Source: Candidatus Gottesmanbacteria bacterium (lineage in GTDB: Bacteria > Patescibacteriota > Microgenomatia > UBA10105 > UBA927). From it: 64,000 nt of DNA. Of the stretch, positions 36,631-40,715 are shown piece after piece. The stretch lies in the NCBI GenBank assembly GCA_023245335.1, contig JAHFKK010000001.1, positions 81,918 through 145,917 on the forward strand. Reading direction: 5' to 3'. A program made the translations under genes and the position numbers. The notes under the pieces were generated by a model, which was not told where the DNA came from, did no database searches, and saw only the letters and a list, made by a program, of their open reading frames with translations. Numbering within the stretch: position 1 is the first letter of the stretch; each line of letters opens with the position of its first letter.

Positions 36631-37046
36631 TACGAACAAAATTTGTTCGCACATATCTTTTGTAGTACGTAATTGCCTCATAAGGGGGAACTTCCCTACC
36701 TTCTCGTGGTATTCCGCTTAAAAGCGGAAATTCAGTCTGAACAATCAGACATCCTTTGTTCCCCACAACTTCGACCGATTAGTACGAGTAAGCTAAGCGC
36801 CTCACAGCGTGTACACTCCTCGCCTATGTACGTAGTCATCTACTACGGGTCTATAACGATTTTTCATCTTGGGGCGGGCTTGGCGCTTGAGATGCTTTCA
36901 GCGCTTATCCCAACCGGATCTAGCTACCCTGCGATGCCGGCACGAATGCGCGACAACAGGCACACCAGGGATCCGTCCTTCTAGGTCCTCTCGTACTGTA
37001 GAAAGTCCCCCTCAAAAATCAAACGCCCACACAGGATAGAGACCGA

Positions 37047-37429
37047 CAAATTTGTTAATCTGTACATCGCTGTACAGTTCGGACTATATCTTTCCGCCCA
37101 AGGCGGATCTGACATGTAGTCTCTGAGGGTTCCCACGACAACGTCGGGGCCTTCCCTGCTGATTGTCTGGCACGTTATACGTGCCTTTACCGCGTTTAAC
37201 GCGGGGCACCATAAAACGATCAATGTTACATTTTCACTACAAAACTGTAGTAGCAACATATACTGCCAGAGTTTCCAGCAAATAGTCAGATTTATCTCCA
37301 CGATGCACTGTGTGCATCGGGATTGTTTTCTTCTTCTATAACAGTCAATTATGAATTCTCGAAGTGGTTACAAAACGTCTGAAAACAAGACAGCTCATTA
37401 TGACGGGATCTCAATCCACGCCAAGGTCT
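37047..37429 (-). mobile_element. Group I intron of about 383 nt with no ORF, inserted in 23S at the E. coli L2593-equivalent site (GACAGU|UCGGUC).
   Basis: The exon sequence is interrupted exactly between conserved GACAGT and TCGGTC, and the exon 1 side ends in U. The insert ends with G (omega-G) and carries a group I catalytic core: cagAGACTAcatgtcagatccgccttgggcggaaagataTAGTCcgaac (P7 5' strand, P8, P7 3' strand) plus GGGAAGGCC (P4/P6-like). Confidence 0.7.
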
Positions 37430-38085
37430 ACTGTCTTACGACGTTCTGAACCCAGCTCGCGTACCCTTTTAACCGGCGAACAGCCGGACCCTTGGGAGCT
37501 TCTCCACCCCCAGGATAGGATGAGCCGACATCGAGGTGCCAAACCGCCTCGTCGCTATGGACGCTCGGAAGCGATCAGCCTGTTATCCCCGGAGTAGCTT
37601 TTATCCGTTAAGCCCGCTCCCTCCCACGAGGGATGCGAGGATCACTAACACCTACTTTCGTATCTGCTCGACCTGTCCGTCTCGCAGTTAAGCTGGCTTG
37701 CCGCGTTTGCACGACACGTCCTGGTTTCCATTCAGGATTAGCCAACCTTTGTACGCCTCCGTTACATTTTTGGAGGCAACCTCCCCAGTTAAACTGCCCG
37801 TCTGACAGTGTCCTGTTCCGGGATTTTTATGCCGGAATAAGTAAGATTTCATCATTTCGAAGAGAGGTATTCCATTGTTGCCCGAAGGCTCCCTCCTATA
37901 CTCGACAGTCAAAATAATGTCTTCAGTGCCAAATTACAGTAAAGCTTCACGGGGTCTTTTTGTCCATGTGTGGGTAGGCCGCATCTTCACAGCCATTTCA
38001 ATTTCGCCGGGTAATGGTTCAAGACAGTTGCTATGTCATTCTGCCTTTCGTGCGGGTCGGAACTTGCCCGACAAGGAATTTCGCT

Positions 38086-38368
38086 CATCAAATAGTTGTG
38101 TTACCTTTATGTCGCCATAAAGATCAGACTATATCTTTCCGCCCAAGGCGGATCGCACGTCTAGTCGTTGAGGGTTTCCCCGACGCACGTTGCGTCGTGG
38201 ATCTTCCCTGCTGATTGACTCCGCTGACTGATTGTTACCTTGCGGTACAGTCAGATACACCGAGTTGTTCCAGCATATAGTGCAATTTTTCTGATTACCC
38301 ACTTTCCTTCTGCACGATGAGTATCAGAGAGGTTTGACTACCTCACTATGGCAACGAAAATATTCTTC
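38086..38368 (-). mobile_element. Second group I intron of about 283 nt with no ORF, inserted in 23S at the L1931-equivalent site (CUA.GGU|AGCGAAAUUCC).
   Basis: The conserved helix 69-71 sequence is split. Exon 1 ends ...AACTGTTCTATGGT and exon 2 resumes AGCGAAATTCCTTGTCGGG. The intron ends in G and carries the same core as intron 1 (caACGACTAgacgtgcgatccgccttgggcggaaagataTAGTCtgatc), followed by a P9-like hairpin CTTTATGgcgaCATAAAG. Boundaries are accurate to about 3 nt. Confidence 0.6.
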
Positions 38369-40715
38369 ACCATAGAACAGTTATAGTTACTGCTGCCGTT
38401 CACCGGAGCTTAAAAAGCTAGCTTCCAACTTTCGAAGGTCACCAACCATTTTTAACTTACCGGCACTGGGCAGGCGTCAGCCCCTATACGTTGCCTTTCG
38501 GCTTCGCAGAGACCTGTGTTTTAGTTAAACAGTTGCATAGCATCATTTACTGTGACCTCGCTTACGCGAGGCAGGGCATCTCCAATATGTTACGCCCAGC
38601 TTTTGTTGCCGAGTTCCTTGAACCATGATCACCCGCTTGTCTTGGTACTCTAATACCAGCGCACCAGTGTCGGTTTGCGGTACGGACAAAAATATGTTCC
38701 CCAACGAGGCTTTTCTTGGAAGCGAAACTATGTGCATTGCCCGCAGCTTGCGCTTTGGACTTCCTGTCACTCCTCAAGTTAAACATGAAAACGGATTTGC
38801 CAATTCTCACTACTTTGGAGCTTCGTGGCTTTTCAACCAGCACACACATTCCCCTTCGTTACCCCTTTAGGTCTTAATCAACATACTTTCGGTACAGGAA
38901 TATCAACCTGTCATACATCGAGCTACGCCCACAAAAAGCGGGCCTCGCCTTAGATCCGACTCACCCGAAGTCGACGAACGTTGCTTCGGAAACCTTGCGC
39001 ATTCGACAATAAGGATTCTCACCTTAAAACGCTACTCATGCCGGCATTCGCACTTCTATCCGCTCCACACCGGTTTCCACCGTATGCTTCACTGCAAATA
39101 GAACGCTCCCCTACCACGTAAACCAAAATAAATTTTAGATTACATCTCTGTCTTCGGCGCTTTGCTTGAGCCTCGATCATTTTTGGCGCCGCAGTTTTCA
39201 TCCAGTGAGCTGTTACGCTATCTTTAAAAGGTGGCTGCTTCTAAGCCAACTTCCTGGGTGTCTTAAAACCGCGACTTCCTTAACCACTTAGCAAAGAACT
39301 TAGAGGCCTTAGACGAAAATCTGGGATGTTTCCCTTTAGCCACACGAGCTTAGCCCCGCATGACTGACTGCCTGGATAACGGTAACTGTATTCGGAGTTT
39401 CATAGAAAAATCTCGATTTCTCTTGACATTTCTTTGAGTGCTCTACCCCAGTACCACATAACCAGACGCTATACCTAAATATATTTCGGGGAGAACCAGC
39501 TATCTCCGGGTTCGATAGGCATATTACCCCTAACCACAAGTCATCTCACAGATTTGTAACTCTGACGAGTTCGGGCCTCCTGTCTGATTTCTCAGACACT
39601 CACCCTGCTCATGGTTAGCTCACCCGGTTTCGGGTCTATTACGACGTACTGTATTGTCGCCCTATTCGGACTTGGTTTCCCTGCGCCTCCCCCCTCTTCG
39701 GGGTTAAGCTAATGCACGTCGAAATAACTCACCGGCTCATTCTTCAATAGGCACGCGATCATCCGCCTTGCGGCAGACTCTCGCTGTTTGTTAGTCGACA
39801 ATTTCAGATACTATTTCACTCCCCTTCCGGGGTGTTTTTCACCTTTCCCTCACGGTACTAGTTCACTATCGGTGCAGTTGCGTGTTTAGTCTTGGAGGAT
39901 GGTTCCCCCAGCTTCCCACATGGCCTTCGTGCCACATGGTACTTGGGAACAGACTAGAGGTGTTTTGAGTTTCGGATACGAGGTTTTCACTCTCTTTGAC
40001 TACCTATTCCGAGGTATTCTCCTACTCTCAACACTCCCATATTGTCTGCCCCACAACCCCCAGATAAATCTGGGTTTAGACTTTTCCGCGTTCGCTCGCC
40101 GCTACTGACGGAATCTCATTCGATTTCTTTTCCTCACCCTACTTAGATGTTTCAGTTCAGGTGGTGCCCCTCACACTGTTACCTCAATCTTTCGACTGAC
40201 TTCGCAGTGCAATGACCATAAATGGTCGGATTGCTCCATTCGGAAACCGCCGGATCGCGGGATATTGACTCCTCCCCGGCGAATATCGCTGCCAATTGCG
40301 TCCTTCTTCGGCACAACTGCCCAAGGCATCCATTGTCGACTTGTAGCGTTGCGGAGAACAAAAGATATCTCAATCCGCCTCCCCGGCGGAAAGAGATCTT
40401 TGTTTCCCCTTAAAAACGAAATAGCCACGATAAGAAGGAAAAATTCCCCCTTACGCGGCAACTACCATACTACAAATAAATATCTGTGTAACAGGAATTG
40501 CACCTGCACTACACAAATGTCATTAAATTATTAATGAGCGAATTCGCGCTCTTGTCGCGAGAATACGCGCCTATTATATATAAGGTATGTATTCCCGATA
40601 CAAGAACCGTGTTCAATCTCTATGGCGTCCCGCCTTCATCAGGTTTGTGGCGCCGCGACTACGCGGCATCCACATCAGTACGGCTTGCTCGTCTACGCAC
40701 AACGCCTACTGTCTG

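Follow-up and report, generated by a model that had tools for sequence, protein, structure and literature searches.

Two related ORF-less group I introns interrupting the 23S rRNA gene of a putative Candidatus Gottesmanbacteria-like bacterium at positions 1931 and 2604

Results

Organization of the 23S rRNA locus

The 64-kb window, by which we mean the whole stretch of DNA analyzed, contains a 23S rRNA gene interrupted by two inserts, here termed introns A and B, with a tRNA gene directly upstream and a 5S rRNA gene downstream; no 16S gene was found within the window. The features are as follows.

40715..40788, minus strand: tRNA-Ala(UGC), directly upstream of the 23S gene
36759..40356, minus strand: 23S rRNA gene, 3598 nt long with its two introns (Rfam RF02541 and alignment to E. 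coli rrl)
38369..40356, minus strand: 23S exon 1, E. coli positions 1-1931, 3' end ...CUGUUCUAUGGU
38086..38368, minus strand: intron A, ORF-less group I intron at L1931, 283 nt, GAAGAA...UUGAUG (omega-G)
37430..38085, minus strand: 23S exon 2, E. coli positions 1932-2604 by exon alignment to E. coli
37047..37429, minus strand: intron B, ORF-less group I intron at L2604 (U2604/U2605), 383 nt, AGACC...AAAUUUG
36759..37046, minus strand: 23S exon 3, E. coli position 2605 to the end, beginning UCGGUCUCUAUCC
36503..36619, minus strand: 5S rRNA, downstream of the 23S gene (Rfam RF00001, 71.3 bits)

The bacterial LSU rRNA model matched the gene at full length (2240 bits, RF02541 model positions 1-2925). 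A preliminary description of this DNA needs correction as regards strand, the gene lying on the minus strand. To fix the insert coordinates the spliced 23S sequence was aligned to E. coli rrl and the numbering was verified with landmark motifs. Without both inserts the 23S is 2932 nt long and colinear with its E. coli counterpart, and the boundaries obtained from the exon alignment (37047-37429 and 38086-38368) were identical to those described previously. Neither insert can be slid along the exons; an exon U stands directly before each of them and the last base of each is G, as had also been noted. The insertion bonds are 1931/1932, in the H69-H71 linker, for intron A and 2604/2605, in the 3' strand of helix 93 at the peptidyl-transferase centre, for intron B. 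Removal of intron A gives the junction ...CUAUGGU/AGCGAAAUU and removal of intron B gives ...AAGACAGU/UCGGUCUC. Of the two homing sites proposed in the preliminary description, L1931 was upheld by the alignment to E. coli but the 'L2593-like' assignment was not: the upstream exon of intron B continues through ...AACGUCGUAAGACAGU and ends at U2604, so that the insert does not occupy L2593 (the I-CreI site) but L2604, 11 nt away. L2604 is a homing site distinct from L2593 and is already catalogued for CPR (PMC11270868).

The 23S exons are 89-96% identical to the 23S of four metagenome-assembled genomes (MAGs) named Candidatus Gottesmanbacteria, in keeping with the CPR-type genome previously suggested. 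Ten neighbouring ORFs searched against NCBIfam gave no taxonomically informative match. Judged by rRNA similarity and deposited names only, the host is probably Candidatus Gottesmanbacteria-like (CPR/Patescibacteria).

Both inserts belong to one structural family of group I introns

Against the Rfam group I model (Intron_gpI, RF00028), for which the gathering score is 50, intron A scored 63.7 bits (E 7.9e-14, match at 38105-38335) and intron B 71.4 bits (E 3.8e-16, match at 37060-37364), and the insert matches cover the full model (1-253). Our own model, R1, gave 156.8 and 152.5 bits and the minimum free energy z-scores were -5.25 and -5.45 for introns A and B, respectively. At its gathering threshold Rfam misses ORF-containing L2604 introns in three other sequences (L060, L037 and L058), the split cores of which were recovered with R1. 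The family to which both introns belong has a proposed P1-P10 architecture in which the P5 domain is extended and P9 is capped by a conserved GCGA loop, and CPR members of the family add P2/P2.1. The guanosine-binding P7 (GACUA/UAGUC, with its G-C pair) and J8/7 AAGAUAUAGUC are present in both. Intron A contains P2 and P2.1, and its core resembles that of CPR L2604 introns more than that of L1931 introns from outside CPR; an ortholog is present in L033. Intron B has an extended P5 and lacks P7.1/P7.2. L2604 introns of its family were also present in chromosome-scale MAGs of Actinomycetota, Armatimonadota and Omnitrophota; no report of L2604 introns outside CPR was found in a literature search, the site having been reported so far for CPR only.

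On an alignment of 22 homologs of the L1931 and L2604 introns, a hand-drawn P3-P9 structure including the P3/P7 pseudoknot left 94.7% of cells paired, compared with 31-40% when the pairing partners were slid. Compensatory changes were seen in 30 of 48 pairs (two of the five in P7), values that none of 500 shuffles reached, and the P7 G-C pair (columns 213/262) was invariant in all 22. RNAalifold runs on each family separately gave compensatory changes in 33 of 62 pairs for the L2604 family (11 orthologs) and in 31 of 53 for the other. The predicted P3-P9 core fold, pseudoknot included, is thus strongly supported by covariation, and the fold is under selection in the homologs. Together with the Rfam scores, the guides described below and the omega-G, these data substantiate the group I identity originally proposed. 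Subgroup IC1 is marked by a P5abc-type extension, a GNRA loop on L9 and an IC1-type P7, with P2/P2.1 variable. Introns A and B resemble this subgroup in their visible P5a/P5b and L9 GCGA, a likeness drawn with the description of bacterial L1917/L1931 introns (PMC1995217).

Guide sequences and predicted splice-site pairing

Internal guides complementary to the respective 5' exons were identified in both introns.

38346..38359, minus strand: internal guide region of intron A, read from the sequence, with predicted pairing
37387..37394, minus strand: internal guide of intron B, GCUGUCUU, forming P1 with 5' exon AAGACAGU and a U.G wobble at the splice site

In intron A, GCCAUAG (38346-38352) is predicted to form P1 with 5' exon CUAUGGU, placing a U.G wobble at the splice site, and the adjoining UUUCGUU (38353-38359) is predicted to form a P10 of 7 bp with 3' exon AGCGAAA. 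The guide fits a lineage-specific exon variant, the corresponding E. coli sequence being CUAAGGU. In intron B, GAGCUGUC of the guide is invariant in all 11 L2604 orthologs. P10 in the canonical position is weak here, at 2-3 bp; a putative alternative P10 of 5 bp, non-canonical, would pair AGACC at the intron 5' end with exon GGUCU.

Absence of homing endonuclease genes

The reading frames of introns A and B gave no Pfam match and contained no LAGLIDADG_1 gene, and a tblastn search of both introns with 66 intron-encoded ORFs yielded no accepted endonuclease remnant, in line with the earlier statement that neither encodes a homing endonuclease. Weak tblastn matches were rejected as remnants, being confined to the conserved ribozyme core; some endonuclease ORFs read through P6-P8, where these matches fell. 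No free-standing endonuclease was found within the 64-kb window. In one relative (L040) a 171-aa LAGLIDADG_1 ORF occupies P6. The term 'streamlined' is fair for introns A and B as a description, whether they lost an endonuclease gene or never had one.

An identical P8 hairpin in introns A and B

The near-identical catalytic core remarked on previously was confirmed as a shared P3'-P8-J8/7-P7' segment that includes a 28-mer, GATCCGCCTTGGGCGGAAAGATATAGTC, common to both introns.

38127..38154, minus strand: shared 28-mer, intron A copy, comprising the end of P3', the P8 hairpin UCCGCC-UUG-GGCGGA, J8/7 and P7' UAGUC
37082..37109, minus strand: shared 28-mer, intron B copy

The 15-nt P8 hairpin has no further copy in the window (chance expectation 0.08). 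It is hypervariable in other introns of the family, yet identical between introns A and B, and P8 of intron A is unlike that of the only close L1931 ortholog found. Within-genome P8 identity exceeded between-genome identity in one clear case among 27 pairs. The identity of P8 suggests that sequence may have been exchanged between the two introns within the gene. A single metagenome match (L127) points to the L2604 lineage as a possible source of P8, but by core distances intron A is nearest to the L2604 intron of L127, not to intron B.

Discussion

Proposed splicing pathway and alternative explanations

Very probably, both inserts are group I introns, belong to a single structural family of close relatives and are spliced from a CPR 23S rRNA. 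Splicing itself is inferred here, as is the route by which the introns arrived. Each intron would fold after transcription, its internal guide base-pairing with the 3' end of the upstream exon so as to position a U.G wobble at the point of attack by an external guanosine, the 5' splice site. The terminal G of the intron would then enter the guanosine pocket of P7 and the freed exon 3'-OH would attack the 3' splice site, so that exon ligation would restore the conserved H69-H71 linker (1931/1932) and helix 93 (2604/2605). Protein cofactors are sometimes needed by bacterial group I introns. Because neither intron has a homing endonuclease gene, both would be kept by vertical descent, and their spread would require an endonuclease acting in trans or reverse splicing.

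It is improbable that the introns have decayed and no longer self-splice, whether as part of a dead gene copy or through full reliance on a host- or trans-encoded maturase. In favour of decay, neither intron has an endonuclease or maturase ORF, the 64-kb window contains no homolog, and the canonical P10 of intron B is weak. However, both introns retain all core helices, J8/7, the P7 G-C pair and omega-G in intact form, and the exons are of full length (RF02541 model 1-2925) with conserved functional sequences kept. A dead copy would moreover be lethal, since CPR genomes usually have one 23S copy (PMC11270868).

Less probable again is an assembly artefact at intron A, in which a chimeric join would have imported an L1931 intron from a co-occurring relative. 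Among short-read contigs retrieved from the same samples none spans intron A, which is attested by the window alone: an independently assembled contig (L129), which reproduces exon 2 and, in the same context, intron B at 100% identity, ends exactly at the intron A 3' junction (38085), and another (L002) ends at 38485, 117 nt before the 5' junction. In addition, the nearest relatives have the L2604 intron and an empty L1931 site. Against this, the window is continuous across intron A, the intron A guide fits the exon variant of the host lineage, and a real presence/absence polymorphism would be just as likely to break the assembly graph at the junction. The P8 shared with intron B, and differing from that of the close L1931 ortholog, is less easily reconciled with import from another genome than with residence beside intron B.

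RNase III-processed 23S intervening sequences (IVS) are simple extended hairpins that lack a ribozyme core and lie at helix 25 or 45. The least probable alternative, that the inserts are expansion segments or IVS, either retained or excised by RNase III without ligation to leave a fragmented 23S, draws on the occurrence of short insertions of this type in CPR and other bacterial 23S (PMC11270868), but both inserts lie in helix 93 and the H69-H71 linker (sites 2604 and 1931), have group I cores scoring above the covariance-model threshold, guides and omega-G, and have homologs that keep the ribozyme fold by covariation.

Returning to two resident group I introns, a tentative joint reading, which we regard as possible rather than probable, is that introns A and B evolve in concert. 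One family would have spread over at least five CPR 23S sites (1917, 1923, 1931, 2257/2262 and 2604) by guide retargeting, copies in the same gene would swap segments such as P8, and intron A would be a recent, still polymorphic gain with a P8 from the resident L2604 intron.

Together the inserts lengthen the 23S gene by 666 nt. They will disturb rRNA gene callers and primers or probes near 1931 and 2604, and distort 23S-based phylogeny of the host CPR lineage unless removed. They extend by one well-delimited case the intron load already documented for CPR rRNA genes. For the study of mobile introns, interest lies in the identical hypervariable hairpin at two sites, with possible exchange within the gene, and in the occupancy of L2604 beyond CPR in the Actinomycetota, Armatimonadota and Omnitrophota MAGs.

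Comparison with known systems

Positions 1931 and 2604 are recurrent intron sites in CPR 23S genes, termed 23IS7 and 23IS13 (Tsurumaki et al. 2024, J Bacteriol; PMC11270868). In 348 CPR 23S genes, that survey counts 222 group I introns that are ORF-less; about half of the CPR group I introns have no ORF. Host clade, both positions, Rfam family and the common ORF-less state all match introns A and B, which are a further example of CPR 23S introns already known at both sites; as sites and ORF-less introns alike are catalogued there, the present introns are of a known kind. The survey stresses versions that encode LAGLIDADG_1 (e.g. I-ShaI, 1931-region site), whereas introns A and B have no ORF, and an identical P8 at two different sites is not described in it.

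The bacterial L1931 introns of Simkania negevensis, Thermotoga spp. and Synechococcus C1/C9 are inserted after U1931, as is intron A, and resemble it in their complex P5 domain and IC1-like P7 (PMC1995217). Those introns are 650-700 nt long, carry single-motif LAGLIDADG endonuclease genes and lack P2, whereas intron A is 283 nt long and ORF-less, with P2 and P2.1. L2593 introns (I-CreI site), of which there are cyanobacterial examples (PMC1995217), lie in the same helix 93, domain V neighbourhood as intron B, with their insertion bond 11 nt upstream. Their published description includes a short P5 as well as P7.1/P7.2 extensions, in contrast to intron B, which has an extended P5 and neither extension.

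The occurrence of related group I introns at more than one rDNA site has been taken as evidence for spread by reverse splicing (fungal rDNA, PMC1299323; reviewed in PMC3984707). As in fungal rDNA, introns A and B have close ribozyme cores at heterologous sites of one rRNA gene, with site-adapted guides. Unlike the fungal case, they reside in a bacterium and have one identical hypervariable hairpin, P8, which suggests exchange at the DNA level after insertion.

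The interrupted 23S rRNA gene and its host

Rfam and ARAGORN scans located a full bacterial 23S rRNA gene carrying two insertions, hereafter intron A (upstream) and intron B (downstream), together with neighbouring RNA genes:

36503-36619: 5S rRNA, downstream of 23S (Rfam)
36759-40356, minus strand: 23S rRNA, full bacterial LSU (Rfam, 2240 bits, model positions 1-2925)
37429..37047, minus strand: intron B, 383 nt, between U2604 and U2605 (...GUCGUAAGACAGU / UCGGUCUCUAUCC)
37060-37364: Intron_gpI match in intron B (Rfam RF00028, 71.4 bits)
37387-37394: intron B guide GCUGUCUU, complementary to AAGACAGU
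38368..38086, minus strand: intron A, 283 nt, between U1931 and A1932 (...CUGUUCUAUGGU / AGCGAAAUUCC)
38105-38335: Intron_gpI match in intron A (Rfam RF00028, 63.7 bits)
38346-38352: intron A guide GCCAUAG, complementary to its 5' exon (CUAUGGU); the pair at the splice site is a U.G wobble
40715-40788: tRNA-Ala(UGC), directly upstream of 23S (ARAGORN; tRNA also in the Rfam scan)

Insertion sites were mapped by aligning an annotated E. coli 23S gene to the window gene with both inserts removed (2932 nt), the numbering of the E. coli record being standard plus 2, as verified at H69, GGAUAAC (around A2451) and GCUGGGUUUAG (around U2585). Named for the preceding E. coli position, the sites are L1931 for intron A and L2604, in the 3' strand of helix 93, for intron B. 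An exon U precedes each intron and a G closes it; the bases on either side leave no room for the boundaries to slide. The coordinates and lengths given in a preliminary description, which had proposed this alignment as a check, agree exactly with these boundaries; its label "L2593-like" is wrong by 11 nt, since intron B lies between U2604 and U2605.

No 16S rRNA gene was found in the 64-kb window, even with a more permissive Rfam scan, and a permissive whole-window scan found no introns beyond A and B. The tRNA-Ala(UGC) position resembles a 16S-23S spacer, and protein-coding ORFs begin approximately 300 nt upstream of it (40789-64000 side); the 16S gene is apparently not linked to the 23S-5S unit. 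Three consecutive ORFs of 659-745 aa on the minus strand (46939-53406) each end in an ABC-transporter ATPase domain of CydC/CydD type; a run of ORFs without family match precedes them.

Exon 2 is 95-96% identical, and the whole 23S gene 89-90% identical, to the 23S genes of four MAGs deposited as Candidatus Gottesmanbacteria (L110, L089, L040 and L090). On this exon identity the host is placed in the Microgenomates group of Patescibacteria, bearing out the CPR-type host proposed initially. The window proteins recur in metagenome assemblies only and most lack a family match, a pattern compatible with a CPR genome. Two MAGs deposited as "uncultured Gammaproteobacteria", L008 (CAYUZE010000011.1) and L022 (CAZCXU010000034.1), carry 23S genes 89-96% identical to the window's Gottesmanbacteria-type gene, and these labels are probably wrong.

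Both insertions have the features of group I introns

Both inserts exceed the Intron_gpI gathering score of 50, the Rfam check suggested beforehand. Beside its guide, intron A carries UUUCGUU, complementary to the 3' exon AGCGAAA (P10), and the P7 strands GACUA/UAGUC and J8/7 AAGAUAUAGUC are found in both introns. Both folds are far more stable than shuffled controls (z-scores -5.25 and -5.45). RNAalifold analysis of 11 L2604 orthologs recovered P3, P4, P5, P6, P8 and P9; compensatory changes were seen in 33 of the 62 pairs, and similar covariation analysis of the L1931 set (n=5) gave 31 of 53. When P3-P9, including the P3/P7 pseudoknot, was drawn explicitly onto an alignment of 22 sequences from both sites, 94.7% of cells were paired, against 31-40% with partners slid by 1-3 columns; compensatory changes occurred in 30 of 48 pairs, and none of 500 shuffles reached the observed values. 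By these sequence measures (Rfam scores, guides, core motifs, stability and covariation) both inserts are identified as group I introns, as originally read. The covariation in homologs and the explicit structure test thus show that the ribozyme fold is under selection in the family to which A and B belong, and we infer that these copies themselves splice.

The longest open frames, of 64 and 107 codons, have no Pfam match, upholding the earlier view that neither intron encodes a homing endonuclease. The L2604 intron of L040 (850 nt) served as a control and has a 171-aa LAGLIDADG_1 ORF inserted in P6; at this position the P6 hairpin of intron B is short and intact. The approximately 100 nt by which intron B exceeds its orthologs lies within the P5 domain and folds into hairpins. 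No homologs of 66 ORFs encoded in related introns were found elsewhere in the window. Introns A and B are genuine, have clear boundaries and are unremarkable in a CPR genome, and their interest comes mostly from side observations.

Distribution of the intron family

Among the loci retrieved, a covariance model (R1) built from the 22-sequence core found ORF-less cores, complete in each case, at 23S positions 1917, 1923, 1931, 2257/2262 and 2604. The occurrence of closely related ribozymes at heterologous rDNA sites is the classical circumstantial argument that introns spread by reverse splicing (PMC3984707). In the 23S gene of a Patescibacteria MAG (L033, JAHJMO010000022.1, 1978-7106), an L1917 intron with an ORF precedes an L1931 intron without one by only 14 nt; the gene also contains an L2604 intron and, approximately 200 nt upstream of 2604, one or more additional cores with J8/7. 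Another Patescibacteria 23S gene (L044, 7737-7960, minus strand) has an ORF-less same-family intron at L1923, the I-CeuI site, followed by another insertion near position 1950.

An L2604 junction pattern (exon ending at U2604, then four bases all unlike the exon continuation) was present in at least 120 loci of a species-representative genome collection. Among the matches listed, insertion length was measurable at 89 loci: 38 insertions were 143-459 nt and 50 were approximately 700-850 nt with an open frame of approximately 200 codons. Nearly all insertions among these matches terminate in ...UG and many start with AGACC, as does intron B. In the three closest relatives with a visible L1931 region among the matches listed (L110, L089 and L008), L2604 is filled and L1931 empty. 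Intron A has its best ortholog in the more distant L033, whose 272-nt L1931 intron is approximately 80% identical to it along its length, with compensatory differences in P3, P5a, P6 and P9.

L2604 insertions with same-family cores were also observed in non-CPR chromosome-scale MAGs (L060, L105, L037, L051, L058, L048, L104 and others); most are 700-850 nt long and include an open frame of approximately 200 codons. Carriers include Solirubrobacterales (3.3-4.4 Mb), Capsulimonadaceae (approximately 4 Mb; rRNA operon linked in the normal way), Acidimicrobiaceae, Gaiellaceae and Omnitrophota.

A P8 hairpin shared by introns A and B

The near-identical core noted in the preliminary description corresponds to 28 nt common to both introns: three P3' bases, the P8 hairpin UCCGCC-UUG-GGCGGA, J8/7 and P7'. 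J8/7 and P7' are conserved throughout, and P8 differs in every ortholog at either site. Among 85 intron cores from 63 loci, at least 17 nt directly upstream of J8/7 were shared in 5 of 3543 between-genome pairs, all same-site orthologs in sister hosts, and in one of 27 within-genome different-site pairs, namely A and B (18 nt; next best 5 nt). Exchange between introns within the same gene is likely but unproven. The L1917 and L1931 introns of L033, with P8 hairpins near-identical but not identical, are a possible second case of sharing inside one gene.

When metagenomes were scanned for P8 together with J8/7, a single further contig matched: L127 (groundwater), from a different CPR organism with 82% identity in the 3' exon. 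Because L127 carries the same P8 within an L2604 intron, the L2604 lineage is favoured as source and intron A as recipient. Over 166 columns the intron A core is closest to the L127 L2604 intron (0.81), then the L033 L1931 ortholog (0.72) and intron B (0.69); besides exchange, the history may therefore include site switching. An exact copy of the 15-nt P8 hairpin UCCGCCUUGGGCGGA is also present in the L127 23S-5S spacer (1080-1092), and a hairpin with an identical 6-bp stem (UCCGCC-GGGGA-GGCGGA) lies in the window's 23S 5' leader (approximately 40378-40394, minus strand). The recurrence may be coincidental, or may reflect a processing signal or a small hairpin element that is used repeatedly.

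Independent assemblies

Short-read contig L129, from an independent assembly, is 100% identical to 32886-38085 and therefore contains intron B in context; it terminates at 38085, the first exon base past intron A. A second contig of that sample (L002) ends at 38485, 117 nt short of the intron A 5' end, and a short-read contig of the same organism (L128) ends at 37072, within the P9 region of intron B. A break at the intron A junction is expected if variants bearing and lacking intron A coexist but is only suggestive, because conserved-exon k-mers shared with another species would break likewise. Together, the breaks in intron B P9 and at the 3' junction of intron A suggest strain-level heterogeneity at the introns in the sampled populations.

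Comparison with known introns

In a survey of 348 CPR 23S genes (Tsurumaki et al. 2024; PMC11270868), 82% have insertions, 433 insertions are group I introns (222 of the 433 without an ORF), and recurrent sites include 1917, 1931, 1952, 2593, 2604 and 2657. Group I introns at 23IS9, -10, -11, -13 and -14 are described there as previously unreported in bacteria. From the order of the survey's lists position 2604 should be 23IS13, and on that assignment the L2604 class is given in the survey as unreported in other bacteria; our literature search found no paper on L2604 introns outside CPR. LAGLIDADG-bearing L1931 introns have long been known from Simkania, Thermotoga and Synechococcus (PMC1995217), and with 1931 and 2604 both recurrent CPR sites, introns A and B are thus of an already known type. 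Intron A shares its site with the Simkania, Thermotoga and Synechococcus introns, whereas the LAGLIDADG genes are theirs (PMC1995217).
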